DNA of 64,000 nt from Candidatus Latescibacterota bacterium (GTDB taxonomy: Bacteria; Latescibacterota; UBA2968; UBA8231), in NCBI GenBank assembly GCA_963422735.1, contig OY730476.1, positions 4,672,001 to 4,736,000 of the forward strand, read 5' to 3'. Position numbers and translations under genes: made by a program. Positions 25,475-45,369 of this stretch are shown piece after piece. Numbering within the stretch: the stretch's first letter is position 1; each line of letters begins with the position of its first letter. The notes beneath the pieces were generated by a model, which was given only the letters and a program-made list of their open reading frames with translations, was not told the DNA's origin and ran no database searches.

Positions 25475-28339
25475 ATGCAAAAGAAAACGCCGAGTCGCCT
25501 GAGTGCTCGCCAGCAACGAACCTTGCTGGCCGTGGTGGCCTTGGGCGTCTTCATGGTCGCCGATACGCTCTATTTGCTGACCAACCGGCTGGCCGACGCC
25601 CTCGATTTCGCCTATTTCGCCGTCACCGACATTTCCCTGCCCAAGTTTTACCAAGGCATGGTGCTGTCGCATACCGGCATCGGTCTGGTGCTGGTGGTCC
25701 TGGCGATGGGCTTTGTGGCTTGGCACTTACCGGCCGTGTGGCGCAAAAGCCGCAAGCGGGCCATTTACACCGGCATCGCCACCCTGACGCTGGGCATCTT
25801 ACTGGCTGTCAGCGGGCTGTTCATCCTCAGCGCAGCGAGCAACCGAGGCAACCCGGTGGCCTACTGGAGCCACGTGGCCGCGGCGGTTTTAGTTCCCCTC
25901 TTTTACTTAGCGCACCGCCGACTCTCGCTGTGGAAGCCCTCCGCACGGAGCTATCGCGTCGTGCCCGTAGCGGTAGTCGGGCTGTTGGCGCTAGCCGTGG
26001 TGCTACACGGGTTGACCTATAGCGGCGAGCAGTACACGCAGGCGGCCGAGCAGGCATTCGCCGCTGGCAAGCACACCGGCCCAGGTTCCAAGGCGCGGCA
26101 GGTCGCCGACTATGCGCCCGACGACTTTGTCCCCGCCAATTTTGTCCCCGCTGCAAGTCCCTTTTTCCCAGCGGCTACTACGACGACTACCGGCGACTTT
26201 TTGCCCTCGCGGATCATCACTCGCGGCGATCTTTCGCAGCCGGAAAAACTCGCCGGAGATCTCGCTGAGTACGGCTTCGTGGTCAACGAGCCGATTGGCT
26301 CGGAAACTTGCGCCCGTTGCCACGCGGCAATCGTCGAACAGTGGGCGACCTCGGCGCACCGCTTTGCCTCGTTCAACAACCCCTTCTACGAGGCGACGAT
26401 CAACCACATGCGCAGCAATTCGACCGAGAGCAACGCCGAGATCGCCGCCCATATCGCCTATGACAAGGGCTTGGCGGGCGAGGAAGGCAAAATCAAGTCC
26501 AAGTGGTGCTCGGGGTGCCACGACCCGGCGCTGATGCTGGCGGGCAAAATGACCGAAGAGATCGATCGCGCCTCGCCACAGGCCCAAGCCGGGCTGACCT
26601 GCCTAGGCTGCCACGCCATCGACGCAATTCACGACCAGACCGGCAACGGCAACTACAACATCGCCGACGAGCAGGAGGATCCCTATCTGTTCGCCGAGGC
26701 CAAAGAAGGCACTGGCCGCTTTTTGCACGACACCGCGCTGAAGGCGCGGCCCATCGTCCACAAGAAGCAGATGCTCAAGCCTTTCTTCCGCACCTCTGAG
26801 TTTTGCGCCACCTGCCACAAGGTCAGCCTCGACTCGCGCGTCAATGGCTACCGCTGGCTGCGCGGCCAAGACGAGTACGACAATTGGCACGACAGCGGCG
26901 TGGCACTCAACGCCTCTAGAACCTTCTATCTGCCGGCTGTCAAGCGGGTCTGCCAGGACTGCCACATGCCGCTGGAGGAAGCGGTCGCCGGCGATGTGTC
27001 GGCGCGAGATGGCTACGTCAAATCGCACCGCTTTTTGGCGGTCAACACGGCTCTGCCCTACATCCGCGGCGACGCGGAAACCATTGCGCGGATTGAGGAA
27101 TTTTTGCAAGACGAAAAACTCAGCGTCGATGTGTTCGCGCTGCACCACCAACAAGAAGCGCACTACGCGCTGGACAAGAGCCAGCCAGTGCTGGTGCGCG
27201 GCGGCGAGTACGCATTTGACGTGGTGGTGCGCAACAAGGGCGTTGGGCACACCTTCCCAGGCGGGACCAACGATTCCAACGAGGGCTGGCTAGAGGTCTC
27301 GGTGGTGGGCGACGACGACGCGGTGCTAGCTTTGAGCGGGGCGGTGCAAGACGACGGGCACGTCGATCTAGGGGCGCACTTTTACAAGGCACTGATGGTC
27401 GATGCAAAAGGCCAAGCCATCCACCGGCGCAACGCCCAAGACATCGTCACGGCCGTGTACGTGCGCACCATTGGCCCGGGTGCGGCGGACGTAGCCCACT
27501 ACAGCTTCCGGGTGCCCGCAGACTACGCGGGACGCAAGCTAACGCTGCGGGCGCGGCTGCTATGGCGCAAGTTCGACCGCATCTATGCGGAATTTGCCTT
27601 CAACACCAACCGCCAAGGTTTCCGCCGCTTCGACCAGGTGCCCCAGTTGCCGGTAACTGAGATCGCCCGCAGCGAAGTGGAGCTGGTGGTGGGAGGGCCG
27701 TCCGCGACGGGTGCGCCGGATGCGGGCGACTGGATGCGCTTCAACGACTATGGCATCGGCTTGTTGCTCCAGGATGATACCCAAGGTGCTGCGCGGGCCT
27801 TTGCGACTGTGGAACAGCTAGCACCCAAGCGCCTAGACGGCTGCCGCAACTTGGCTAGGGTTGCGGTGCGCGACGGGCACTTGGAGCGAGCCTACGAGCA
27901 TTTGGAAGACTGCGAGGCACTGGTGTCCGGCGACGGGCAGACAGCTTGGGTTTGGGGCGTGGTGTTGCAGGAGGACGGCCGCTACGAGGCCGCGGCGCAG
28001 GCCTATCGCCGAGTGTTGCGCGATTTTCCCGAGGATCGGGCTACGTGGCGCAACTTGGGACGAGTGCTCTACCTCGACGGCCGTTATGAGGAGGCCCTAG
28101 AGGCCCTCGATGGCGTGCTGGCCATCGATCCGGAGGACCGCGTCGCCCACTACCACCGGATGCTTTCGCTGCGCGCCCTCGGCCGCGAAGACGAGGCCCT
28201 AGTCGCCGAGCAGGCTTACCAGTACTATCAGATCGACGAGTCGGCTCAAGAGCTGACGCGCCGCTACCGGCTAGCGCATCCGCACGACAACCGCGAGGCG
28301 CTCAAAATCCACGTTCATCCGCTGGGGGAGGATGGTTAG
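25475..28339 (+). CDS. Membrane-anchored multiheme cytochrome c with C-terminal TPR repeats
   Basis: About 5 N-terminal TM helices; five CxxCH motifs (CARCH, CSGCH, CLGCH, CATCH, CQDCH); GHTFPGG; TPR-like tail. Confidence 0.85.
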   Translation: MQKKTPSRLSARQQRTLLAVVALGVFMVADTLYLLTNRLADALDFAYFAVTDISLPKFYQGMVLSHTGIGLVLVVLAMGFVAWHLPAVWRKSRKRAIYTGIATLTLGILLAVSGLFILSAASNRGNPVAYWSHVAAAVLVPLFYLAHRRLSLWKPSARSYRVVPVAVVGLLALAVVLHGLTYSGEQYTQAAEQAFAAGKHTGPGSKARQVADYAPDDFVPANFVPAASPFFPAATTTTTGDFLPSRIITRGDLSQPEKLAGDLAEYGFVVNEPIGSETCARCHAAIVEQWATSAHRFASFNNPFYEATINHMRSNSTESNAEIAAHIAYDKGLAGEEGKIKSKWCSGCHDPALMLAGKMTEEIDRASPQAQAGLTCLGCHAIDAIHDQTGNGNYNIADEQEDPYLFAEAKEGTGRFLHDTALKARPIVHKKQMLKPFFRTSEFCATCHKVSLDSRVNGYRWLRGQDEYDNWHDSGVALNASRTFYLPAVKRVCQDCHMPLEEAVAGDVSARDGYVKSHRFLAVNTALPYIRGDAETIARIEEFLQDEKLSVDVFALHHQQEAHYALDKSQPVLVRGGEYAFDVVVRNKGVGHTFPGGTNDSNEGWLEVSVVGDDDAVLALSGAVQDDGHVDLGAHFYKALMVDAKGQAIHRRNAQDIVTAVYVRTIGPGAADVAHYSFRVPADYAGRKLTLRARLLWRKFDRIYAEFAFNTNRQGFRRFDQVPQLPVTEIARSEVELVVGGPSATGAPDAGDWMRFNDYGIGLLLQDDTQGAARAFATVEQLAPKRLDGCRNLARVAVRDGHLERAYEHLEDCEALVSGDGQTAWVWGVVLQEDGRYEAAAQAYRRVLRDFPEDRATWRNLGRVLYLDGRYEEALEALDGVLAIDPEDRVAHYHRMLSLRALGREDEALVAEQAYQYYQIDESAQELTRRYRLAHPHDNREALKIHVHPLGEDG

Positions 28340-28536: not shown

Positions 28537-28700
28537 GGGCTAACTCCTTTGTGGAGCGGCCGTTACAAAACGCAGCGCGGTCTCGCCTTGGCGGACAAAC
28601 CATGCGGTGCGAAGATAAAACAGACCGTATGAAGGTGTGTCAATAGATCCAAGAATAAGAAAAAATATGACGAGGAAGTACGCGATTGAACGCAAGTTTT

Positions 28701-30476
28701 ATGCCAACATCTCATAGCGCGATCTGGCGACTCTGGGTCGGCGCGTTGCTGTGGGCCGCCTGCGGCCCGGAAGAGCCTCCGGCACCAGCCCCGACGCCCG
28801 AGTACACCAAAGCACCGGCTGCCGAATATGCGGTGGGGCGCGGGCGGAAAGAGGCTCCGGTGGTGCGCTTTGTCGATGTGACGAGGGAAGCCGGTCTCGA
28901 ATTCAGGCACGAAACCGGCGCGCGCGGCGACAAGTGGATGCCGGAAACCATGGGCAGCGGCTGCGCGCTTTTTGATTACGATGGCGACGACTGGCTGGAC
29001 GTGCTCTTGGTCAATAGCGAAGGCTGGGGGGGCGAAAAGGCCCCCGGCAAGCTCTATCGCAACCTCGGCAACGGCACCTTTGCCGACGCAACCGAACGCG
29101 CTGGCCTAGACTTCTCGGTCTATGGCATGGGCGCGACGATTGCCGACTACGACGCCGATGGCGACCCGGATGTGTATCTGACGACCCTCGGACCGAACCT
29201 GCTGTTGCGCAACGACGCGGGCCGCTTTGTCGATGTGGCGCGGGAAGCGGGCGTGGCGGGCGCGGCTTGGCGAGATGACGCGGGCAACGAGAATCCCGAG
29301 TGGTCCACGGGCGCGGCTTGGGTTGATGTGGATGGCGACGGCTGGTTGGACCTGTTGGTCACCAACTACGTGCGCTGGTCGGCGAGCACCGACATATATA
29401 CTTCGCTCGACGGCAAGGAAAAATCCTACGCCACGCCACAACAGTACCCCGGCTCGACGCCGAGGCTCTACCGCAATCTGGGCGGGACCCGCTTCCGAGA
29501 GATAACCAAAGAGGCCGGCCTGCTGTTGCCCGAAGGCAAATCCATGGGCGTGGCCATGACCGACTTTGAAGACGATGGCCGTATCGACTTGGTCGTCACC
29601 AACGACACCCAGCCCAATTTCCTGTTGCAAAACTTAGGTGGGGGCCGCTTTGAGGAGCGGGGTCTCGCCGCGGGCATTGGCTACGACGAGAGCGGGCGGG
29701 CGCGAGCGGGGATGGGCGTAGATATCGCCTCGGTCGCCAACGATGGCGTGCTTTCCATCGCCATTGGCAACTTCAGCCGCGAAGCCCTCTCGCTCTACCG
29801 CCAAGCAGGCGGCGAGGTTTTCGTCGATGCTGCGGGTAGGGCAAGGCTGATGCAGGCGACGCTGCGGCAGCTGACCTTTGGGCTGCGCTTTTTCGACTAC
29901 GATCTCGACGGCTACTATGACTTGATTTTGGCCAATGGGCACATCGAGCCAGAGATCAACTCGGTGCAGAAGGAGATCGAGTACCGGCAGGCACCGCAGT
30001 TGTTTTGGAATGACGGCGACGGGCGGATGGTAGAGGTGTCAGAGCAGATGGGTGGGCCGTTCCTCAAGCCAGTGGTGGCGCGAGGGCTGGCCGTCGGCGA
30101 TATCGACGCAGACGGCGACTTGGATGTGTTGCTGACGACTAATGGCGGCCCGGCCTATCTATTGCGCAACGAGGGGCCGACTGGCCGTGCGGTGGCGATC
30201 GACCTGACGGGCAAGGTACCCAACCGCGACGCCATCGGCGCGAAGGTGACCGCGCAGGTGGGCGAGCAGGCGCAGGTGTTCATGGTACGCACGGGATCTT
30301 CTTATTTGAGCCACAGCCCGACGACCCTGACCGTTGGCTTGGGCTCGGCCGAGCAGCTCGACCGCTTGGAGATTCGCTGGCCGGATGGGAGCGAGGAAGT
30401 GTTGGAAAACGTCGCAGCCGATGCTCGCTACCGGATTGTGCAGGGCGAGGGCATTGTGGGAAAGAGGGCTTGGTAA
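28701..30476 (+). CDS. FG-GAP repeat / ASPIC-UnbV (CRTAC1-like) lipoprotein
   Basis: LLWAAC lipobox; repeated DYDGDD/DADGD motifs; C-terminal NRDAIGAKV...GSSYLS...GLG...IRWPDG. Confidence 0.88.
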   Translation: MPTSHSAIWRLWVGALLWAACGPEEPPAPAPTPEYTKAPAAEYAVGRGRKEAPVVRFVDVTREAGLEFRHETGARGDKWMPETMGSGCALFDYDGDDWLDVLLVNSEGWGGEKAPGKLYRNLGNGTFADATERAGLDFSVYGMGATIADYDADGDPDVYLTTLGPNLLLRNDAGRFVDVAREAGVAGAAWRDDAGNENPEWSTGAAWVDVDGDGWLDLLVTNYVRWSASTDIYTSLDGKEKSYATPQQYPGSTPRLYRNLGGTRFREITKEAGLLLPEGKSMGVAMTDFEDDGRIDLVVTNDTQPNFLLQNLGGGRFEERGLAAGIGYDESGRARAGMGVDIASVANDGVLSIAIGNFSREALSLYRQAGGEVFVDAAGRARLMQATLRQLTFGLRFFDYDLDGYYDLILANGHIEPEINSVQKEIEYRQAPQLFWNDGDGRMVEVSEQMGGPFLKPVVARGLAVGDIDADGDLDVLLTTNGGPAYLLRNEGPTGRAVAIDLTGKVPNRDAIGAKVTAQVGEQAQVFMVRTGSSYLSHSPTTLTVGLGSAEQLDRLEIRWPDGSEEVLENVAADARYRIVQGEGIVGKRAW

Positions 30477-35425: not shown

Positions 35426-36013
35426 CTATGGCATTTTTCGGGCATCCAAAAACGAATAACTACTAGTGAGCGAATCGAGCGGTGACTGTTGCCTGCCTAT
35501 CCACTTGGCAACTAATTCGCGATCCCTGTTGGTGTCAGCCCGCTCCTCGCCAACCGCTGAACACACGGCCGTGCGCCTAGCCGGTGCGGCCTTGCTGCTC
35601 AGTGGCTTGGCCTTCAATTCGCTTCGCGCATTTTCTTTCGGACTAGCTGCCCTTTTAAGGCGGACGGCGGGCAGCCTTTTCAACCGCTGGTTGAGCGGAT
35701 CAACCTCAATGCCCACCGATTCGAGCGCCGTTAGGCCAAGTAGAGGCTCGGCGTCTGCGTCGCCGAAAATAATCGTGCCGCCGACCAATTCGCCCATAAA
35801 TTCGATTTGCCCGACCGCGATGTCGAGCTTGAGTTCGGCCCCATTGGCTAGCTCATACGTCCGCTGGCCTTGCGGCTTGAGGCCGATGGCTTCGAGGTGC
35901 GGCCTCGGGACGAGGCAATCGGTCGCGCCGGTATCCACCAGAAAAAGCCCTTCCCACGTGCGGTGCGGTGCAGCCGGGTTGCGAATGGTTACGGTGACGT
36001 GCGTTGCTCCCAT
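35426..36013 (-). CDS. Clan AA (retropepsin-like) aspartic protease with a probable read-through tail
   Basis: FLVDTGA catalytic motif, ELANG and PLLGLTALES; AAGGA RBS; residues after PAVRLK look non-native. Confidence 0.8.
   Translation of the reverse strand: MGATHVTVTIRNPAAPHRTWEGLFLVDTGATDCLVPRPHLEAIGLKPQGQRTYELANGAELKLDIAVGQIEFMGELVGGTIIFGDADAEPLLGLTALESVGIEVDPLNQRLKRLPAVRLKRAASPKENARSELKAKPLSSKAAPARRTAVCSAVGEERADTNRDRELVAKWIGRQQSPLDSLTSSYSFLDARKMP
35557..35641 (+). repeat. Diverged copy of the 5' coding segment at 36186-36276
   Basis: Encodes EHTAVRLAGAALLLSGLAFN versus ERTATRLAGAALLLGGLAFN; many differences are synonymous. Confidence 0.75.
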
Positions 36014-36172
36014 GTCCTTTCCTTTCTTTGGATGTTTCCTGCTGCTCTCGTAGAACTTCCAAGACGACGACCTAAGCGTCAACAGCATCCTGTTGACATC
36101 GGCTCATTGAATTTGCAACTCCTTTGGGGTAGCAAGCATTTTAATATATGCGATATACGATGCTCGCTTGCC

Positions 36173-38911
36173 ATGAACCCACTGACTGAACGCACTGCCA
36201 CGCGCCTCGCTGGTGCGGCCCTGCTGCTCGGCGGTCTGGCCTTCAACCCGCTGGCCCTCGCGCATTTTTTTTTCGGGCATCCGCTTAGCACCGAGGGTAT
36301 CATCGCCCTCCAGGTCGCCTTGATCTTTGGCGGCGGTTGGCTCGTTTGGCGATGCCCCCGGTTGCCGCTGGTTCCCATTGTGATCGTCGCCCTCGCCTTG
36401 GGTGCGCTTGCCACCTTCGGGGTGTACGGCACGGCCCGCTCACTACAAAAGGTGCAGGAACGCAACCGGCTCCTCGCCGCTCTCGACCGCAGCGAACAGC
36501 TGCAGCAGCACCTGAGCGGCGAAGCCCTGCCGCTCCTCGCCGTGGGGATGTACCAAGGCCAACTGCCCGCCGCGCTGGCGCGTGCGCTTTTTGCCGCCTC
36601 GGTCGCTGTCGCGGACATAGAGCAGACCGCAAAGGCGACCGAGGTCGTGCCGGCGCTGGGGATCGAGCGCCATAGCTGGAGGATTGCACCCGCCGCGCAG
36701 TTCCACAGATCCGACCTCCAGCTATGGCACTCGCTCTTGGCGGCGCTGCATTCCTGTGACTATGCAGCCTTTCACATTGAGACCGGGCATTTCCTCGACG
36801 CGGAGGACTTCACCGCGCCCTTAGGCGCGACAACGCTCTACCAAACCCGCTTGCGCTTCGACGCCTCGGCGCAGACAAAAGACGGGCAGCGCGCGCAAAT
36901 TCGGGCTTGGCTGGTGCTCGACTGGCAGCAGCAGGAAGATACCACCTGGCGGATCCAACGTTGGGAGACCGAATCCCTAGAGATGTTCACGCGGTCGCAC
37001 ACGCTCTTTGCCGAAGTCCTCGACGAGGTGCTCCCGCGCGACGAGGATCGCGCCCAGGCCCGATTTTCGCGCCACGCCGAACTGGTGCGCCAGTCGTTTT
37101 TCGACTCCGCGTTTGTCGCGCCGCATCGCTTTTTCACCCGCCAAGCCTTTGACCGCCATCCCGGCATCAGCGTCGTGGATATCGACGCCGATGGGTACGA
37201 CGACCTGTACCTTGCCGTGCGCCGAGGTAAGAACATGCTGTTGCACAATGGCGGCGACGGCACGTTCACCGAGTGCGCAGCCCAATACGGCCTCGATGTG
37301 GAGGACCACACGGCAGCCGCGCTCTTTGCCGACTTTGACAACGACGGCGACCCGGATGTCTTTCTCGGTCGCACACTCGCGCCCAGCCTCTACTTGGTCA
37401 ACGAGGACGGGCACTTTGCCCCCCGCGACTTGGGCAATGGCGTCTTGCCGGCCCTTGTGGCCTCGATCTCAGCGGCCGATTACGACCGCGACGGCCTGCT
37501 CGATGTGTACTTCTCCACGTATGCCGCGCGGATGTTGCTCGAAGCGGTCACCACCGCGTCTCACGCAAACGCGCTGTTGGGCCTCCTGCCTGCGGACCAC
37601 GCCCGTGCGCTCTACGACCTGAGCCGCGACCGCATTGGCCACCTCATCCACGACGCACCCGGGCCGCCCAACGTCCTGCTGCGCAACCTCGGCAACGGTC
37701 GCTTCGCGCCCACCGCAGCCGTGTGGCGCAACACCTTACAGGCGACTTGGGCCGACTACGACCGCGACGGCGACCCGGATCTCTACCTCGCCAACGACTT
37801 TGCCGCTAACAACTTGCTCCGCAATGACGGCGGTGCCCTCGTCGATGTCACCGCCGCGAGCGGGGCCGCGGACCGAGGGTTTGGCATGGGCGCAAGCTGG
37901 GCCGATTACGACGGAGATGGCCGCCAAGATCTGTACGTGACCAATATGCACAGCAGTGCCGGTCGCCGGATCACGGCAGCCGCCGGACGGGCGGGCGCGG
38001 CGTTTGCCCCTTTGGCCCGGGGAAATTCCCTCCTAAGAAACGGCAGAGCGGGCTTCACCCGCATTGCGGATTCGCCTGTGGAAGACGGCGGCTGGGGCTG
38101 GGGCGGCCAATTTTTGGACTTTGACAACGACGGCGACCTCGACATCTACGCCCTGAGCGGCTACTACACCCCGCCGTCTGAAGTCGCTCTCCCCGAGGAT
38201 ACCTGAAGCCTGTTTTGGCGCACGGTCGTGCGCCATGGCCAGACGGATGGGGCGTACAACGTAGGAGCGCGGCTCAACGCTGGGGCCTCGCTCAGCGGAT
38301 ACCAGCGCAACCGCCTCTTCCTCAACCTAGCGGGCCGCGCCTTCCTCGATGTGTCGGGTCTGTCGGCGGCGGATTCGCCCGCGGACGGCCGCGCCTGCGC
38401 TACTTTGGACTTCGATCGCGATGGCCGCATCGATTTGGCTATCGTCAATGCCAACGAGCCGCTATGCGAGCTGTTTGCCAACCGCAGCGCGGCGGGGCAC
38501 ATCCTCGCGTTGCGGTTTGTGGGGGGTAACGATCGCGATGAAGTCTCGCGCAAATGGAGTGTGCGCGATGGCTATGGCGTACAAGTGGAAGTGGATGTCG
38601 GCGGGAGGACATTGCTGCGCGAGCACCGGGCTGGCGAGGGGTTCTCGGCCCAGAACAGCGCGACCCTGATCGTCGGCTTAGGTGCGCATGTACGAGCGGA
38701 TGCCGTGCGCGTGTACTGGCCTTCGGGGCGCATCCAGCGCGCAACCGACGTGGCGGCCGGTGCGCTGGTGACCGCGTACGAAAATCCCCGGCACTCGCCT
38801 ACGGGTGCGGCGTTTGTAACCGCGCCATACTACCCATCAGCAGCAGTGCCCCCAGATAGCAGCCGACCGCAGCCCACAGCGCAACGGCAAACCCCCAATG
38901 CAGGGCGATGA
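36173..38911 (+). CDS. Membrane-anchored FG-GAP / ASPIC-UnbV (CRTAC1-like) protein; putative selenoprotein with UGA at codon 678
   Basis: ORFs 35870-38206 and 38228-38911 share a frame and are separated only by TGA 38204-38206; read-through gives EDT-U-SLFWRTVV and restores the domain order of the 28701 paralog. Confidence 0.8.
38207..38239 (+). promoter_or_regulatory. Putative bacterial SECIS element
   Basis: Perfect 8-bp stem TGGCGCAC (38216-38223) / GTGCGCCA (38228-38235) with a GGTC loop 17 nt after the UGA; GCC/GGC can extend the lower stem. Confidence 0.72.
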
Positions 38912-41045
38912 AAACCGCCAAGGCCGCGCCAAAGACCGAGCCCACGCCGTTGACTGCAAATCCCCAGTCGATGCACTCGCCGACGTAGCGCGCAGCGCGT
39001 GGGAAAGGCATGCCCATCAAGAAGCCCGGCGGGGCGATCAACGCACAGCTTATGGCGACCCGCACACCCCAATTAAGCCCTCCACAGATTGCCACCACGT
39101 GCGGAAAGAGTACCAGATGCGCCGCTGTCCACGCGGCGACAAAGACAAACGGCAACCACGGCCCGCCGCGCTGCGAGTAGAAACTTCCCGCGCCCGAACT
39201 CAGCAAGAGCGCCAACAAAACGATTGGAAACGTATAGGCCGAATGGCCCAAGAGCAGGCTGTATTGCTGGATCCACACCACCTCAATCAGCATGTAGCCC
39301 GTGCCAATGGCGGCGAAGTACAGCCAAGCGGCCCCCGACAGCTTGGCTTGCCCCCGAAGTCGCGGCAAGAGCAAGAGGGGCACTCCCACTGCGACGACGA
39401 CCGCCAGCACGGCCACCACCAACAGCCGCGCCAGTGGAAATCCGGCAAACTCAAAGGCCAATGCCTGTTGCTGCCGCCCGCGATCCAAGCGGTCCCAGCG
39501 CCCCATCTGCGCCACAAAGGGCCGGTCATCGGTTGGCGGGCTGATGTCGATGGCTGCTGCCGACCAATGCGCTTCCCAGCCATCGGCAGCAATTCGGCTG
39601 ATTAGGTGCTCGGCTGCCGGAGCCGGATGGAGGGCATGGCTCGCCGGGTCGGCTGCGGCAAACAGGGCCGGCAAGGTCGTATCGACCAAGGTGCGCGCCA
39701 ACGGCTGTCGCCCCAAAACCAACACCTGCCGTTGCTGCGTGGGCAGGTCGTACACTGCCAAGTGCGCTTCCGCAGCCAACCCCAACCCCCGCAAGGCATC
39801 TATCGCGGCACTGGTCAGCCGCGGCACATATACCTGATGCTCGATCAACAGGACCCCATCCGCCGTCAGGGCTCGATAGAAATCTCTTAGGGCTTCCACC
39901 GTGAACAAAAAATTCTCAGCCAAGGCAAACGCCCCGGACGAGAGCGCGGCGAACGTATTGGAACTGCGCGAGATAATCAGGTCAAACGCGATCGGGTGCT
40001 GCCGGGCATAGACGCGGGCGTCCACGCTGTGGACCGCGACCCCGGTACTTTCGTACAGGTGACCGAAAAATGCGGCCTGCTCTCCGCGAGTGAGCATTTC
40101 GTTGAGGCCGGCGTTGACTTCGACCGCATCGACGCGCTGTGCGCCGCCCCATTTGGCTTGCATCACTTCGCTGCCGCCACCAGCTCCGACCACCATCACC
40201 CGCTCGGCTGCGAGTGCGCGAATCAGCGGCTGCAGGTTGAGCGCAAACTCGGGTGCGGCCGCGGGCGGCCTCTCGCGCCAGTCGCCGCGCACCCGATAGA
40301 GCAGCATATTGGCCGCGCCGTCGATGTCGATGCCGCGCACGGCCGCGCTGTGGGCATAGACCCGAATGCGGCCCATGGCGTCCCAGTGCTCGGCGATGAC
40401 GGGAGCCTTGGTCGGCGTCTTGGGCACGAACGCGGCCTCGGCTGCAAAGGCTGCGCCGACGAGTGCAGCGAGCAAGGCCAGCGACCCTGTGCGCTGGTAG
40501 CGGCTTGGCCCCCATCCGGCTAGGGCACCGGGAATGCAGCACAGCATGGCTGCGGCCGGCACCCCAAAAATGTTCATCGCGGCGATTGCGGCCACGCCAC
40601 CACCGGCCGCTCCCACGAGGTCGGCCGCGTAGAGCTGGGCGGCGTTTTGGCGGTGGCGGCGCAAGAGCGCGGCGCAGAAGGATCCGCCGGCCAGAAAGGG
40701 CAGCAACAGCAGCCCCACGCCCGCGGACAGCAAGGCGAGGTCGCTACTAGAGCGCCACAGCGCGGCGAATTCGATGGGCAGGCGCGTTACAGCGGCCGGC
40801 CCGAGCGCAGCCGTTCCACTGGCCAAGAGCGCAGCGGTGCCGATTCGCGGCGAGATGGCCCACGCCGGCCAAAAGCGCAGCGACAGGGCCCCGAGGCCGA
40901 GGCCTAGCACGGCGAGGGAAACTACGAGAAAGGCAAAGGAATAGAAGAATTCAGCGGAGAATATCCGCGTCCAGACAATCTCTAGAGCCACCAGCATGGC
41001 CGCGACCAAGCCGATGGCCACTTGGTCGCGGCGCAAGGGACTCAT
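38799..41045 (-). CDS. Polytopic membrane protein with a central spermidine-synthase-like SAM domain
   Basis: LEIVWTRIFS and LYAADLVGAAGG; VGAGGG, VEVN, DAR and FDLI; TDDRPF; C-terminal TMs with LMGMPFP and NGVGSV. Confidence 0.8.
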   Translation of the reverse strand: MSPLRRDQVAIGLVAAMLVALEIVWTRIFSAEFFYSFAFLVVSLAVLGLGLGALSLRFWPAWAISPRIGTAALLASGTAALGPAAVTRLPIEFAALWRSSSDLALLSAGVGLLLLPFLAGGSFCAALLRRHRQNAAQLYAADLVGAAGGGVAAIAAMNIFGVPAAAMLCCIPGALAGWGPSRYQRTGSLALLAALVGAAFAAEAAFVPKTPTKAPVIAEHWDAMGRIRVYAHSAAVRGIDIDGAANMLLYRVRGDWRERPPAAAPEFALNLQPLIRALAAERVMVVGAGGGSEVMQAKWGGAQRVDAVEVNAGLNEMLTRGEQAAFFGHLYESTGVAVHSVDARVYARQHPIAFDLIISRSSNTFAALSSGAFALAENFLFTVEALRDFYRALTADGVLLIEHQVYVPRLTSAAIDALRGLGLAAEAHLAVYDLPTQQRQVLVLGRQPLARTLVDTTLPALFAAADPASHALHPAPAAEHLISRIAADGWEAHWSAAAIDISPPTDDRPFVAQMGRWDRLDRGRQQQALAFEFAGFPLARLLVVAVLAVVVAVGVPLLLLPRLRGQAKLSGAAWLYFAAIGTGYMLIEVVWIQQYSLLLGHSAYTFPIVLLALLLSSGAGSFYSQRGGPWLPFVFVAAWTAAHLVLFPHVVAICGGLNWGVRVAISCALIAPPGFLMGMPFPRAARYVGECIDWGFAVNGVGSVFGAALAVFIALHWGFAVALWAAVGCYLGALLLMGSMARLQTPHP

Positions 41046-43026: not shown

Positions 43027-43578
43027 TTAGCCCCGTCGCCATTTGCTCAAGCTTCTCATATCCGGCACAATGGACTGCCCGCGCTCCAAGTCGAAGTCGA
43101 TCTCCACGGAGTGCGCTTGGTAATCTTGGTCACCACGCGTGGTCTGATATACGTCGTGCCCCTCGGCGCAAATGGGCATAGTGTGCCACACTCCCAGATG
43201 CAAGCAGACGCCCACATCGCCCGCCGAGTAAAAAGCGCGTAGCTCCTCGGCTTGGATGTCGGCTTGGATCGCTCCGACGATAAACACGCTCGGCGAGTGC
43301 AAGCTGGGGTAAAACGACTGGCCGGCGTCCGTGTGAAAGGCAAAATGGGCACGCTTCAGTCCCTCGGAGATGGGTACGCGCTGCGGATGGGGCGCGTACC
43401 AACTCGGGGGGTCTTTGGGCTGGGGACCGGGCGTGGCGAGGACTGGGTACGCGTTGGTCGCATAACCGCCTTTTACCTTGTCCGGCTTGCGCTCTTCAAA
43501 GGTGCGAATCACGTGGCCAAAAGGGGCAAACGCTTCGGGTTCGAGCGGTTCGACCGGGATTTTCACGAGGTTCCACAT
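43027..43578 (-). CDS. Ureidoglycolate-lyase-like cupin
   Basis: PVEPLEPEAFAPFGHVI, HTDAGQSFYP, LRAF and GVWHTMP. Confidence 0.7.
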   Translation of the reverse strand: MWNLVKIPVEPLEPEAFAPFGHVIRTFEERKPDKVKGGYATNAYPVLATPGPQPKDPPSWYAPHPQRVPISEGLKRAHFAFHTDAGQSFYPSLHSPSVFIVGAIQADIQAEELRAFYSAGDVGVCLHLGVWHTMPICAEGHDVYQTTRGDQDYQAHSVEIDFDLERGQSIVPDMRSLSKWRRG

Positions 43579-43602
43579 GGCAATCTCCTCTCGTTAGCGC
43601 GA

Positions 43603-44847
43603 TTAGCCGATGCCTAGAGCGGCGTCTATCTCCGCTTGATAGGCGTACGATTGGCAGGATTCGACCGCGCTGAGCGACACCGGGCCACCGGCGCGCCATG
43701 ACTCAAACACCGCGTAGAGCGCGGCCACATCCTTCAGCCCGCAGCGGCCATCCACTTCAACTGTGCGCTGGCCGCGAATGGCCTCCGCCATTTCGTGCAG
43801 TTCGTATGCGATCAGCTTCAGGTCAACGAGCGGATCGCCGGCCGAAACCCCGCTCGGAAAGAAGTGGCGAGTCAGCGGGTCGAACGCTAAGCCCGCACCC
43901 TCGGCAGACGCGAGGATGGCCTCTTGGCTCAGGGGCTCAGCGTCGCGCCGCGCAAGCGTTATGCGCCCCCCGCGCACGCCAAAGCCGTCAATGCTGCCGT
44001 TGGTGCCCATGATCAACTCGCGGTGTGCGCCCGCGTGGCCGGCGATCCCGACGAGCCAGTTTAGGGTCGCGCCGCTTTCCATCTTGAAGATCGCTTGGGT
44101 CGCGTCCTCGGCCGCAGCGGGTATGCGCTCTGGCATGGCCGCGAAGCGCTTTTTGTAGAACTCGTAGTCCATTGACATGGTTGCCGATTTTTGCCGCTCC
44201 GGCTCCACCATCCGCGCATCGGCATAGACTTCGGCAAAATCCCCCAATTGGTAACGGATCATGTGGGTGAAGTGTACGGCCATATCGAGGATAAAGCCGC
44301 CCAATTCCCGGCGGTGCCGCCAAGGGGTGATAAAAATGGAATTGCTTGGGCCCAGCGAGTGGTACAACCCCATATAGGGGGTGCCGATGGCACCGGTGTC
44401 GATCAGGTGGCGCACGATGCGGGCCGAAGGGTCGCGGCGAAAATTTTCGGCCACGGAGACAATGCGCTCGTTGCGTGCGGCTGCGTCGAGGATCCTCTCG
44501 CAGGCTTGCACCGTGATGGCCAGCGGCTTTTCCACCAGCACGTGCAATCCTAAGTCGAGGGCCTCGCAGACGACGGTGTGATGCACCGAAGGATCGGTCA
44601 CCACATCCACGGCTTCGAGGTCTGGCACCTGCTGTACCATCGCCTCCATATTGGTGCAGACCTTGGGGCGGACCCCAAGGAGCTTCTCGGCTTCGGCGGC
44701 GGCCATCTCGGCGTTTTCCGCGCTGATGTCGCAGACCGCGCTCAGCTCGATTGAGTCGAAGGGGGAGTCGGCTAGCTGCTTGAGGCCGTGTAGATGGCGG
44801 GTGCCCATGCCGCCGCAGCCGACGAGGGCTAGGCGCACCTTGTCCAC
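43603..44847 (-). CDS. Gfo/Idh/MocA oxidoreductase
   Basis: VGCGGMG, HVLVEKP, VAENFR and GGFILDMAVH. Confidence 0.9.
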   Translation of the reverse strand: MDKVRLALVGCGGMGTRHLHGLKQLADSPFDSIELSAVCDISAENAEMAAAEAEKLLGVRPKVCTNMEAMVQQVPDLEAVDVVTDPSVHHTVVCEALDLGLHVLVEKPLAITVQACERILDAAARNERIVSVAENFRRDPSARIVRHLIDTGAIGTPYMGLYHSLGPSNSIFITPWRHRRELGGFILDMAVHFTHMIRYQLGDFAEVYADARMVEPERQKSATMSMDYEFYKKRFAAMPERIPAAAEDATQAIFKMESGATLNWLVGIAGHAGAHRELIMGTNGSIDGFGVRGGRITLARRDAEPLSQEAILASAEGAGLAFDPLTRHFFPSGVSAGDPLVDLKLIAYELHEMAEAIRGQRTVEVDGRCGLKDVAALYAVFESWRAGGPVSLSAVESCQSYAYQAEIDAALGIG

Positions 44848-44850
44848 CCG

Positions 44851-45369
44851 CTACTCCTGCCAGTTAGAGACGTGGCTCATGTCGGGCAGCAGAGCCAAGC
44901 CGCGGTCTTGGTCGAAGTGAACATCGACCGAGTGGTGGTGATAACTCTGGTTGCCACGCGCGGTTAGGTACACCTCCTCACCACGCAGGCACACGGGCAT
45001 GGTGTGCCACACCTTTAGGTTCATGCAGATGCCGGTGCTGCCGTCGGAGTAAAAAGCGAGCAGATCCTCCGGCCCGATCATTGGCTGAACCGGGGCCACG
45101 AAAAAGACGGTCGGGCAGTGCCGACTCGGATAGAAGGACTGCCCGGCATCGTCGTGAAAGGCAAAGTGCGCCCGCAGCCGACCCTCGGACAGGTTGAGCT
45201 GGTCGGATGCGGGGTCTTTGACCTCGGCCCGCACGGTATATGCGCGCTCGATCAGCTCTCCTACCACGACCTCGGGTTTGGCCTCGTCAAAGGTGGAGAT
45301 GACTTGCCCGAAAGGGGCAAAGGCCGGGGAAGTCAGCGGCTCCACGGGAACCTTGAGAATTTTTAGCAC
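44851..45369 (-). CDS. Ureidoglycolate-lyase-like cupin (paralog of 43027-43578)
   Basis: PVEPLTSPAFAPFGQVI, HDDAGQSFYP and VWHTMP. Confidence 0.7.
   Translation of the reverse strand: MLKILKVPVEPLTSPAFAPFGQVISTFDEAKPEVVVGELIERAYTVRAEVKDPASDQLNLSEGRLRAHFAFHDDAGQSFYPSRHCPTVFFVAPVQPMIGPEDLLAFYSDGSTGICMNLKVWHTMPVCLRGEEVYLTARGNQSYHHHSVDVHFDQDRGLALLPDMSHVSNWQE

Follow-up and report, generated by a model that had tools for sequence, protein, structure and literature searches.

Proteins of the CRTAC1 and ASPIC-UnbV FG-GAP type are built from a beta-propeller followed by a UnbV_ASPIC beta-sandwich. Selenocysteine (Sec) has been catalogued in thioredoxin-fold proteins with an exported or periplasmic redox context (Prx-like, TlpA-like UGC, DsbA-like and others), where it stands at a strand-to-helix junction (PMC13188914, main text). 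According to the main text of the same work, a consensus bacterial Sec insertion sequence (bSECIS) has a stem of 4-16 bp, a loop of 3-9 nt with a G in the first two loop positions, a spacing of 16-37 nt from the UGA and a minimum free energy (MFE) of <= -7.5 kcal/mol. We analyzed a 64,000-nucleotide stretch of DNA from a Candidatus Latescibacterota bacterium (assembly GCA_963422735.1, contig OY730476.1, positions 4,672,001 to 4,736,000), which is referred to as the window. The gene at 36173..38911 (+) of the window encodes a protein with the propeller, the UnbV_ASPIC sandwich and the fold of CRTAC1, and it contains a UGA codon at 38204..38206 (+) that, judged from the comparison of related genes, is almost certainly a Sec codon (Sec678). 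The context predicted for the protein and the position of Sec at a strand-to-helix junction resemble those of the catalogued thioredoxin-fold selenoproteins. However, Sec is here part of a propeller protein, while the thioredoxin-like domain found in sister clades carries an ordinary CxxC.

The internal TGA and its conservation

Two open reading frames (ORFs), 35870..38206 and 38228..38911 (+), share one frame and their sole interruption is the TGA at 38204-38206, as had been claimed in a preliminary description of the locus. Read-through from the ATG at 36173 with TGA as U yields 912 residues, with U678 in ...YYTPPSEVALPEDT-U-SLFWRTVVRHG...; the residues just before U678 are PEDT (PEDT-U-SLFWRTVVRHG). 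The gene terminates at a second TGA, 38909-38911, and the 912 codons thus contain a single internal TGA. Ortholog alignments reach from residues 1-8 to about residue 888 of the window protein. The preliminary description had proposed a 912-residue membrane-anchored selenoprotein with Sec678, and the comparisons made here support this proposal and gave nothing that refutes it.

In a six-frame search of 41 related genomes, 37 matched at E <= 1e-20, and each of the best 21 rows (65-100% identity) had one TGA inside the match. The column of the site was analyzed by tblastn with residues 591-780 against 40 fetched loci, four of which had no match across the site. TGA (given as an asterisk) occupied the column in 21 orthologs (PEDT-*-SLFWRTVVRHG), in four loci of a second clade with about 35% identity (LKDT-*-SLFWRHVLAS) and in two loci of a third clade, found in a different family of the class, where a U-x-C motif results (PDG-*-SCVWQAVV). 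Cys was encoded in six paralog loci, including one of the same genome (G000:C1:2160600-2164200; QDY-C-TTFWTHD), and Ser or Asn in three short family members. Homologs with TGA or Cys at the codon, which had been named as a check of the Sec assignment, were therefore both found.

All 27 same-genus sequences displayed TGA at the column. A search of 168 genomes of the phylum gave matches in 71 at E <= 1e-25, and the gene was present in every genome of the genus to which the window belongs. A further 20 loci, drawn from other genera as well as one additional family and one additional class, carried TGA in register, except in genome G151. The clade-2 homolog of that genome (L099, G151:C9:36800-41100) retained the TGA and the hairpin sequence, the frame was disturbed near the site and a TAA lay inside. 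This locus may be a pseudogene or an assembly error.

Other phyla were scanned with a degenerate DNA pattern around the codon, using one genome per species, and at least 120 stretches were obtained. Among the matches listed, 71 of 80 loci encoded the family with TGA at the column and nine did not, although these figures say nothing about proportions because the pattern was built on TGA forms. The 71 loci were distributed in Planctomycetota (33), Acidobacteriota (18), Verrucomicrobiota (15), Latescibacterota (2) and Flavobacteriaceae (1), and two had no taxon label. This tally was made by hand from the deposited names; the label 'Candidatus Multivorans' was taken from the tree analysis. Two Sec-form copies occurred on two contigs of genome G130 (L086 and L093), and L132 and L179 are two copies on one contig.

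The TGA stands in independent assemblies, and the sequencing error that the preliminary description had named as a refutation was not seen. A run from another study contained a contig across the site, with 10 differences. The eight of these that are listed do not touch the codon, and the other two are counted as C>T in the tally of the run, so neither can lie in T-G-A. A second spanning run with 116 differences was not used for the codon. One metatranscriptome run contained only short contigs diverged by about 10%, none of them bridging the TGA, and is silent on expression.

The ratio of nonsynonymous to synonymous substitution rates (dN/dS), calculated for 26 orthologs compared with the window gene, was 0.112 in the 340 codons upstream of the TGA and 0.132 in the 200 codons downstream. 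This coding evolution of the downstream part rules out a pseudogene. The seven codons that separate the UGA from the GUG at which the second ORF begins (+1 to +7) encode S-L-F-W-R-T-V within the most conserved motif of the family and displayed 19 synonymous differences and one nonsynonymous difference over the 26 pairs. The constraint on these seven codons is a strong argument against termination followed by restart at the GUG. In an alignment of 66 sequences, D676 was conserved in 62, S679 in 59, W682 in 65 and R683 in 58.

The hairpin and the selenocysteine machinery

The perfect GGTC-loop hairpin just 3' of the TGA, which the preliminary description had reported, is located at 38216..38235 (+). 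Its 5' arm TGGCGCAC (38216-38223) and 3' arm GTGCGCCA (38228-38235) form a stem of 8 bp around the loop GGTC (38224-38227), which starts 17 nt after the UGA. With a loop of 4 nt that begins with G, this stem and spacing and a centroid energy of -15.1 kcal/mol, the hairpin lies within the bSECIS limits given in the main text of PMC13188914, in line with the SECIS-like character ascribed to it. The alternative start GTG (38228-38230) is formed by the first three bases of the 3' arm, and no GGAGG-like motif was seen ahead of it (judged by eye, without a scan). The absence of a clear ribosome-binding site before this GTG and its position inside the stem had also been pointed out before.

Selection at the RNA level was analyzed in 27 species. 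There were 188 codon columns whose amino acid is invariant and has four- or six-fold degeneracy. Of these, 172 varied synonymously, while the hairpin codons +5, +7 and +8 showed no synonymous change and formed the only such run of three in the 765 codons examined. This suppression, as read from the aligned codons, supports an RNA constraint in the clade of the window gene. Stem changes in this clade kept the pairing (G-C to G-U in six and two sequences, A-U to G-U in one). Among 105 unique Sec sequences (UGA plus 3' region), 102 had an uninterrupted stem of >= 5 bp at the same place, while the stem was <= 1 bp at this place in the six Cys paralogs. It is the conservation of the hairpin, not its energy, that sets it above chance.

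Covariation was calculated for 80 of these 105 sequences, selected by a register with a 5-nt loop. The other 25 comprised 19 with the 4-nt loop of the window gene, five shifted by 3 nt and one other. A first gapless alignment, in which hairpin registers were mixed, was excluded from the pair counts. The alignment used was anchored on the codon and gapless, and was thus not fitted to the structure. Pair 18-28 was GU in 29, CG in 24, AU in 18, GC in six and UA in three sequences, and pair 20-26 was AU in 73 and GC in seven; neither was unpaired in any sequence. The covariation score was 0.275, while shuffles gave 0.134 and none of 500 reached the observed value; with the partner slid, the score was <= 0.084. 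The covarying hairpin that the preliminary description had named as a check was therefore found in the sister clades with a 5-nt loop, but not in the clade of the window gene. There, the pairs were formed in 96.1% of cells in the 19 loop-4 sequences and the shuffles equaled this value; as all stem changes were one-sided, the pair-count test carries no information in this clade.

The window is part of a one-contig genome of 4.95 Mb, and the Sec genes are located elsewhere in this genome. A search for selA, selB, selC and selD, which the preliminary description had called for, detected all of them: selA (479 bits), a SelB wing domain (61 bits) within a 637-aa open frame, a tRNA-SeC(tca), and selD (374 bits), which has its own in-frame TGA, read as VACGG-U-ASKL. 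The selenophosphate synthetase encoded by selD (G000:C1:3576379-3577302, outside the window) is thus itself a selenoprotein. A perfect CUGGCA-GGUC-UGCCAG hairpin follows its UGA at about 39 nt, beyond the usual SECIS spacing, and a weaker hairpin lies nearer.

The genome also encodes an FdhA (719 bits) with the canonical NCSRA-U-HAP. The SECIS of fdhA reads GGUUGUC-GGUCU-GGCAGCC, and its loop begins 18 nt past the UGA, compared with 17 nt in the window gene. The two genes are alike in the in-frame UGA, the loop 17-18 nt on, the stem of 7-8 bp and the loop GGUC(U). A GGUC-containing loop had been ascribed to E. coli fdhF in the preliminary description, and the loop of fdhA in this genome is GGUCU. 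Like fdhA-type selenoprotein genes, the window gene would depend on selA/B/C/D, all present in this genome. The proteins themselves are unrelated. The window protein has neither a Mo/W cofactor domain nor the U-H-x-P motif, and in contrast to FdhA it is membrane-anchored and probably extracytoplasmic.

Taken together, we estimate a probability of about 85% that 36173-38911 constitutes a single gene, whose product is a CRTAC1-like protein of 912 residues that is anchored in the membrane and probably extracytoplasmic, with the UGA decoded as Sec by SelA, SelB, SelC and SelD and the hairpin at 38216-38235 acting as the SECIS to which SelB binds. In the sequences compared, codon and hairpin are kept and the part after the TGA is translated in frame, and the genome has the Sec machinery. 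Several observations count against this interpretation. The energy of the hairpin is unexceptional (z = -0.86 for a 66-nt fold, 36 of 200 shuffles at least as stable), and the argument therefore depends on comparing the gene with others. No compensatory double change occurred among the 19 loop-4 sequences of the clade of the window gene, where only one-sided changes were found. The covariation derives from sister clades with a different loop register, and its 80 sequences were picked by hairpin register out of 105. Finally, an in-frame GUG follows the UGA at +21 or +24 in every clade.

The last observation would fit two genes, with a stop at UGA 38204 and a second protein made from GTG 38228 by termination-reinitiation, the hairpin regulating the restart. 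Public gene callers do give an N-terminal protein of 660-680 aa, and 55 of 120 database proteins among the matches listed end at the site. However, this arrangement is very improbable, since the seven codons between UGA and GUG evolve as coding (19 synonymous against one nonsynonymous difference) and their S-x-x-W-R motif is translated continuously in homologs with Glu or Cys. Moreover, the GUG is paired in the stem, no Shine-Dalgarno-like motif was seen by eye before it, and a single helix (residues 677-686) crosses the junction in the AlphaFold2 model. We give equally little credence to a read-through of UGA outside the Sec system, by a near-cognate tRNA (Trp, Cys or Arg) or a reassigned UGA, even though the evidence on the inserted residue is indirect. 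UGA is not reassigned, because the 912 codons contain only one internal TGA and the gene itself ends in TGA; the genome has the full Sec machinery, the hairpin matches the SECIS of its own fdhA in loop sequence and spacing, and paralogs carry Cys at the column. A lone in-frame stop in a long ORF is also the usual look of a recent pseudogene. That the TGA is a nonsense mutation or a sequencing error is nevertheless hardly credible at all, as all 27 species of the genus share it and so do more than 100 genes of other clades and phyla, the downstream dN/dS is 0.13, and the spanning contig from a different study shows no change in the codon.

Protein architecture and the possible role of Sec678

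An AlphaFold2 model built on the 66-sequence alignment displayed a single fold with high confidence (mean predicted local distance difference test, pLDDT, 87.9; predicted template modeling score, pTM, 0.86). The N-terminal residues 1-86 (36173..36430, +) form a membrane anchor, with a hydrophobic sequence and modeled helices at 3-32, 40-60 and 66-81. A long helix (residues 88-127) precedes a beta-rich domain at residues 140-281 (36590..37015, +), which consists of strands with pLDDT mostly > 90, is conserved in the long subfamily and had no Pfam or NCBIfam match. W259 in this domain was nearly invariant in the 66-sequence alignment. The FG-GAP beta-propeller occupies residues 331-662 (37163..38158, +) and was identified by Pfam, with FG-GAP_3 in six stretches and FG-GAP, and by Foldseek. 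Sec678 belongs to a strand (673-676) and a helix (677-686) encoded by 38189..38230 (+), with the motif D676-x-U678-S679-x-x-W682-R683 as defined by the model and the column statistics. It is the second residue of the helix, directly after the strand. The C-terminal beta-sandwich (residues 739-885; 38387..38827, +) holds UnbV_ASPIC and Cys765. UnbV_ASPIC covers residues 800-866 (bases 38570-38770), past the TGA, while the FG-GAP matches all lie before it. The Pfam scores were 129 bits for PF13517, 61 bits for PF01839 and 55 bits for PF07593, all above the cut-offs. The protein ends 27 residues past the last strand of the sandwich (residue 885), and it has a C-terminal tail of about 20 residues that is missing from orthologs.

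The top Foldseek match was murine CRTAC1 (9etn_A; E 1.6e-25, TM-score 0.68 on the target), and 9etn was also the only PDB match by sequence. In comparison with CRTAC1, the window protein has the additional N-terminal transmembrane anchor and beta-rich domain and shows no EGF-like domain by Pfam. The odd number of transmembrane helices, an RCPR loop and the signal peptides of the sister clades suggest an N-in, C-out topology, with the propeller probably in the periplasm or outside.

In comparison with short members of the CRTAC1 family, the window protein has the additional strand-helix insertion with D-x-U-S-x-x-W-R, which corresponds to a gap in these members. One of them is encoded in the window itself, at 28686-30476 (+), without the Sec insertion. 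The preliminary description had stated that this paralog has the same FG-GAP-to-ASPIC order in one ORF and that the UGA lies between the equivalents of its DLILANG and QLFWN. Both statements hold, and the U-bearing segment is opposite a gap of 17 residues in the paralog at this place.

The clade of the window gene and its sister Sec clades share the Sec column, the S-[LF]-F-W-R motif and the position of the hairpin. Proteins of the sister clades start with a signal peptide and finish with an AhpC-TSA/Redoxin domain that carries CxxC, and TPR repeats occur in some of them. In contrast, the clade of the window gene (clade 1) has the transmembrane anchor, the 4-nt loop register and the clade-specific Cys765, which was found in 27 of 27 clade-1 sequences and was absent from the other groups. 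The AhpC-TSA/Redoxin domain was missing from all 27 clade-1 sequences, including the window protein. Clade 3 resembles the catalogued thioredoxin-fold selenoproteins in its U-x-C motif (PMC13188914, main text).

The nearest full-length homologs outside the phylum, taken from a collection of 5.8 billion proteins, were 40-47% identical, belonged to Verrucomicrobia, Chloroflexi and Methylomirabilota and were annotated as 'CRTAC1 family' or 'VCBS repeat-containing'. The history of the Sec column was analyzed with a quick FastTree phylogeny of 175 sequences, from which the motif columns had been removed and which was rooted on short family members. In this tree, 62 Glu/Asp sequences formed one well-supported clade nested among Sec lineages, with seven state changes in all. 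The phylogeny suggests an ancestral Sec or Cys at the column, replaced later by Glu on one occasion.

According to Pfam, an AhpC-TSA/Redoxin (TlpA/ResA-like) domain forms the C-terminus of many proteins of the family. The CxxC of this domain was intact in all 19 Sec forms of the phylum that have it. Of 76 further Sec forms whose tails reach >= 300 aa, 75 had it by a simple C-x-x-C search at the expected place, whereas only eight of 38 Glu forms with the AhpC-TSA/Redoxin region had it. From the retention of CxxC in Sec forms and its loss in most Glu forms, we infer that Sec678 may be a redox-active selenol. Together with the position of Sec at the N-terminus of a helix and the U-x-C of clade 3, this pattern points to a redox selenol coupled to a thiol-disulfide domain. 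Sec678, in the first turn of the helix and within the motif D-x-U-S-x-x-W-R, would then act as the redox-active selenol. In the sister clades it would be recycled by the fused TlpA/ResA-like CxxC domain, and in the clade of the window gene either in trans or by Cys765 as a candidate partner. The preliminary description had guessed at a hidden catalytic or redox function. The link with a fused TlpA-like CxxC domain supports this guess but falls short of proof.

Extending this redox role to the whole group, the long CRTAC1-like proteins may represent a large overlooked class of extracytoplasmic selenoenzymes, in which a selenol at the N-terminus of a helix on the propeller depends for its recycling on a TlpA-like CxxC domain, either fused or separate. 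The Glu relatives, common in Verrucomicrobia and Chloroflexi, would have branched off from a Sec-using ancestor and would be derived forms without a redox role, and the membrane-anchored clade of the window gene would have swapped the fused reductase for Cys765. We propose this only tentatively and consider it somewhat less than an even chance. A number of findings count against a redox role of Sec678. At the Sec column, Glu and not Cys was present in 61 of 65 homologs among the matches listed, with Asp, Ser, Ala and Val once each, and Glu in the nearest homologs is unusual for a redox Sec. Comparison of the columns of the Sec groups revealed no partner Cys conserved across all Sec clades. The clade of the window gene has no thioredoxin-like domain and no redoxin gene stands beside the window gene. 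The link between Sec and CxxC rests largely on one evolutionary transition and is thus a pattern, not a statistic.

A serious rival concerns the function only: Sec678 could be a ligand of a soft metal or metalloid beside Asp676. In that case, the TlpA-like domain would serve only to keep the selenol in the reduced state needed for metal loading, and a hard cation such as Ca2+ would be bound by the Glu forms at the same site, D-x-E. FG-GAP propellers are calcium-binding folds, and TlpA-type proteins act as reductants of the metal-binding cysteines in copper proteins. The switching of the column between Sec/Cys and the carboxylates Glu/Asp, next to the conserved Asp676, would be expected of a ligand, and the same applies to the absence of a resolving Cys common to all Sec clades. 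However, the N-terminus of a helix after a strand is a typical position of redox-active Cys or Sec, nearly all Sec forms have kept CxxC, which decays once Sec has been replaced, and the U-x-C of clade 3 is a redox-type motif in the catalogue (PMC13188914, main text). We regard the metal-ligand role as rather unlikely, and the redox selenol is the reading we prefer.

Neighboring genes and occurrence of the family

The neighbors of the selenoprotein gene encode a retropepsin-like protein, a 2-hydroxyacid dehydrogenase, a 748-aa membrane protein, ureidoglycolate-lyase-like proteins and TPR proteins. Pfam and NCBIfam searches of the neighboring ORFs revealed neither a redoxin gene nor anything that points to a substrate. 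The ORF at 35426-36088 (-), upstream of and divergent from the selenoprotein gene, encodes 220 aa with a retropepsin-like aspartyl protease domain. The 748-aa polytopic membrane protein (38799-41045, -) has a faint aminopropyltransferase-like match; its gene is convergent with the selenoprotein gene and the two reading frames overlap by about 113 bases. A GFO/IDH/MocA-type oxidoreductase is encoded at 43027-45369 (-) between two ureidoglycolate-lyase-like ORFs. Further away, a 954-aa protein with multiheme cytochrome c-like matches and C-terminal TPR repeats (25475-28339, +) is encoded directly upstream of the short CRTAC1-like paralog, and these two may be functionally linked.

The window protein matched none of the NCBIfam families (June 2026). 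In three sister-clade proteins, no NCBIfam model covered the propeller or the Sec site, and the C-terminal ResA/TlpA-like part alone was hit, below the cut-off. The 2026 table of 119 prokaryotic selenoprotein families in the main text of PMC13188914 has no FG-GAP, VCBS, ASPIC, CRTAC1 or propeller entry. The main texts of the selenoproteome studies PMC13188914, PMC12013277, PMC13326102, PMC2398784 and PMC9312934 contain no FG-GAP, VCBS, ASPIC or propeller, although supplementary candidate lists, notably S9 Table of PMC4807772 and the tables of the deep-Sep and BSepDB papers, could hold the family. Putative selenoproteins are mentioned in the main text of Kim et al. (2016; PMC4807772), which names neither UnbV nor FG-Gap. 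Full-text literature searches, at the level of titles and the beginnings of abstracts, gave no link of FG-GAP, VCBS, ASPIC, UnbV or CRTAC1 proteins to selenium among the papers listed. The gene belongs to a widespread family of CRTAC1-like exported selenoproteins that is absent from the main text of the current catalogue and from NCBIfam.

All 55 close relatives among the matches listed from the 5.8-billion-protein collection end at the TGA. Since the gene is annotated as two fragments in the databases examined, the domain architecture, the protein counts and any structure-based annotation are wrong for those entries. The family is common, with at least 71 verified genes from the pattern scan. 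If the interpretation given here is true, Sec occurs in a fold known from adhesion and calcium binding, not from catalysis, and would open the chemistry of bacterial CRTAC1-like proteins to testing.

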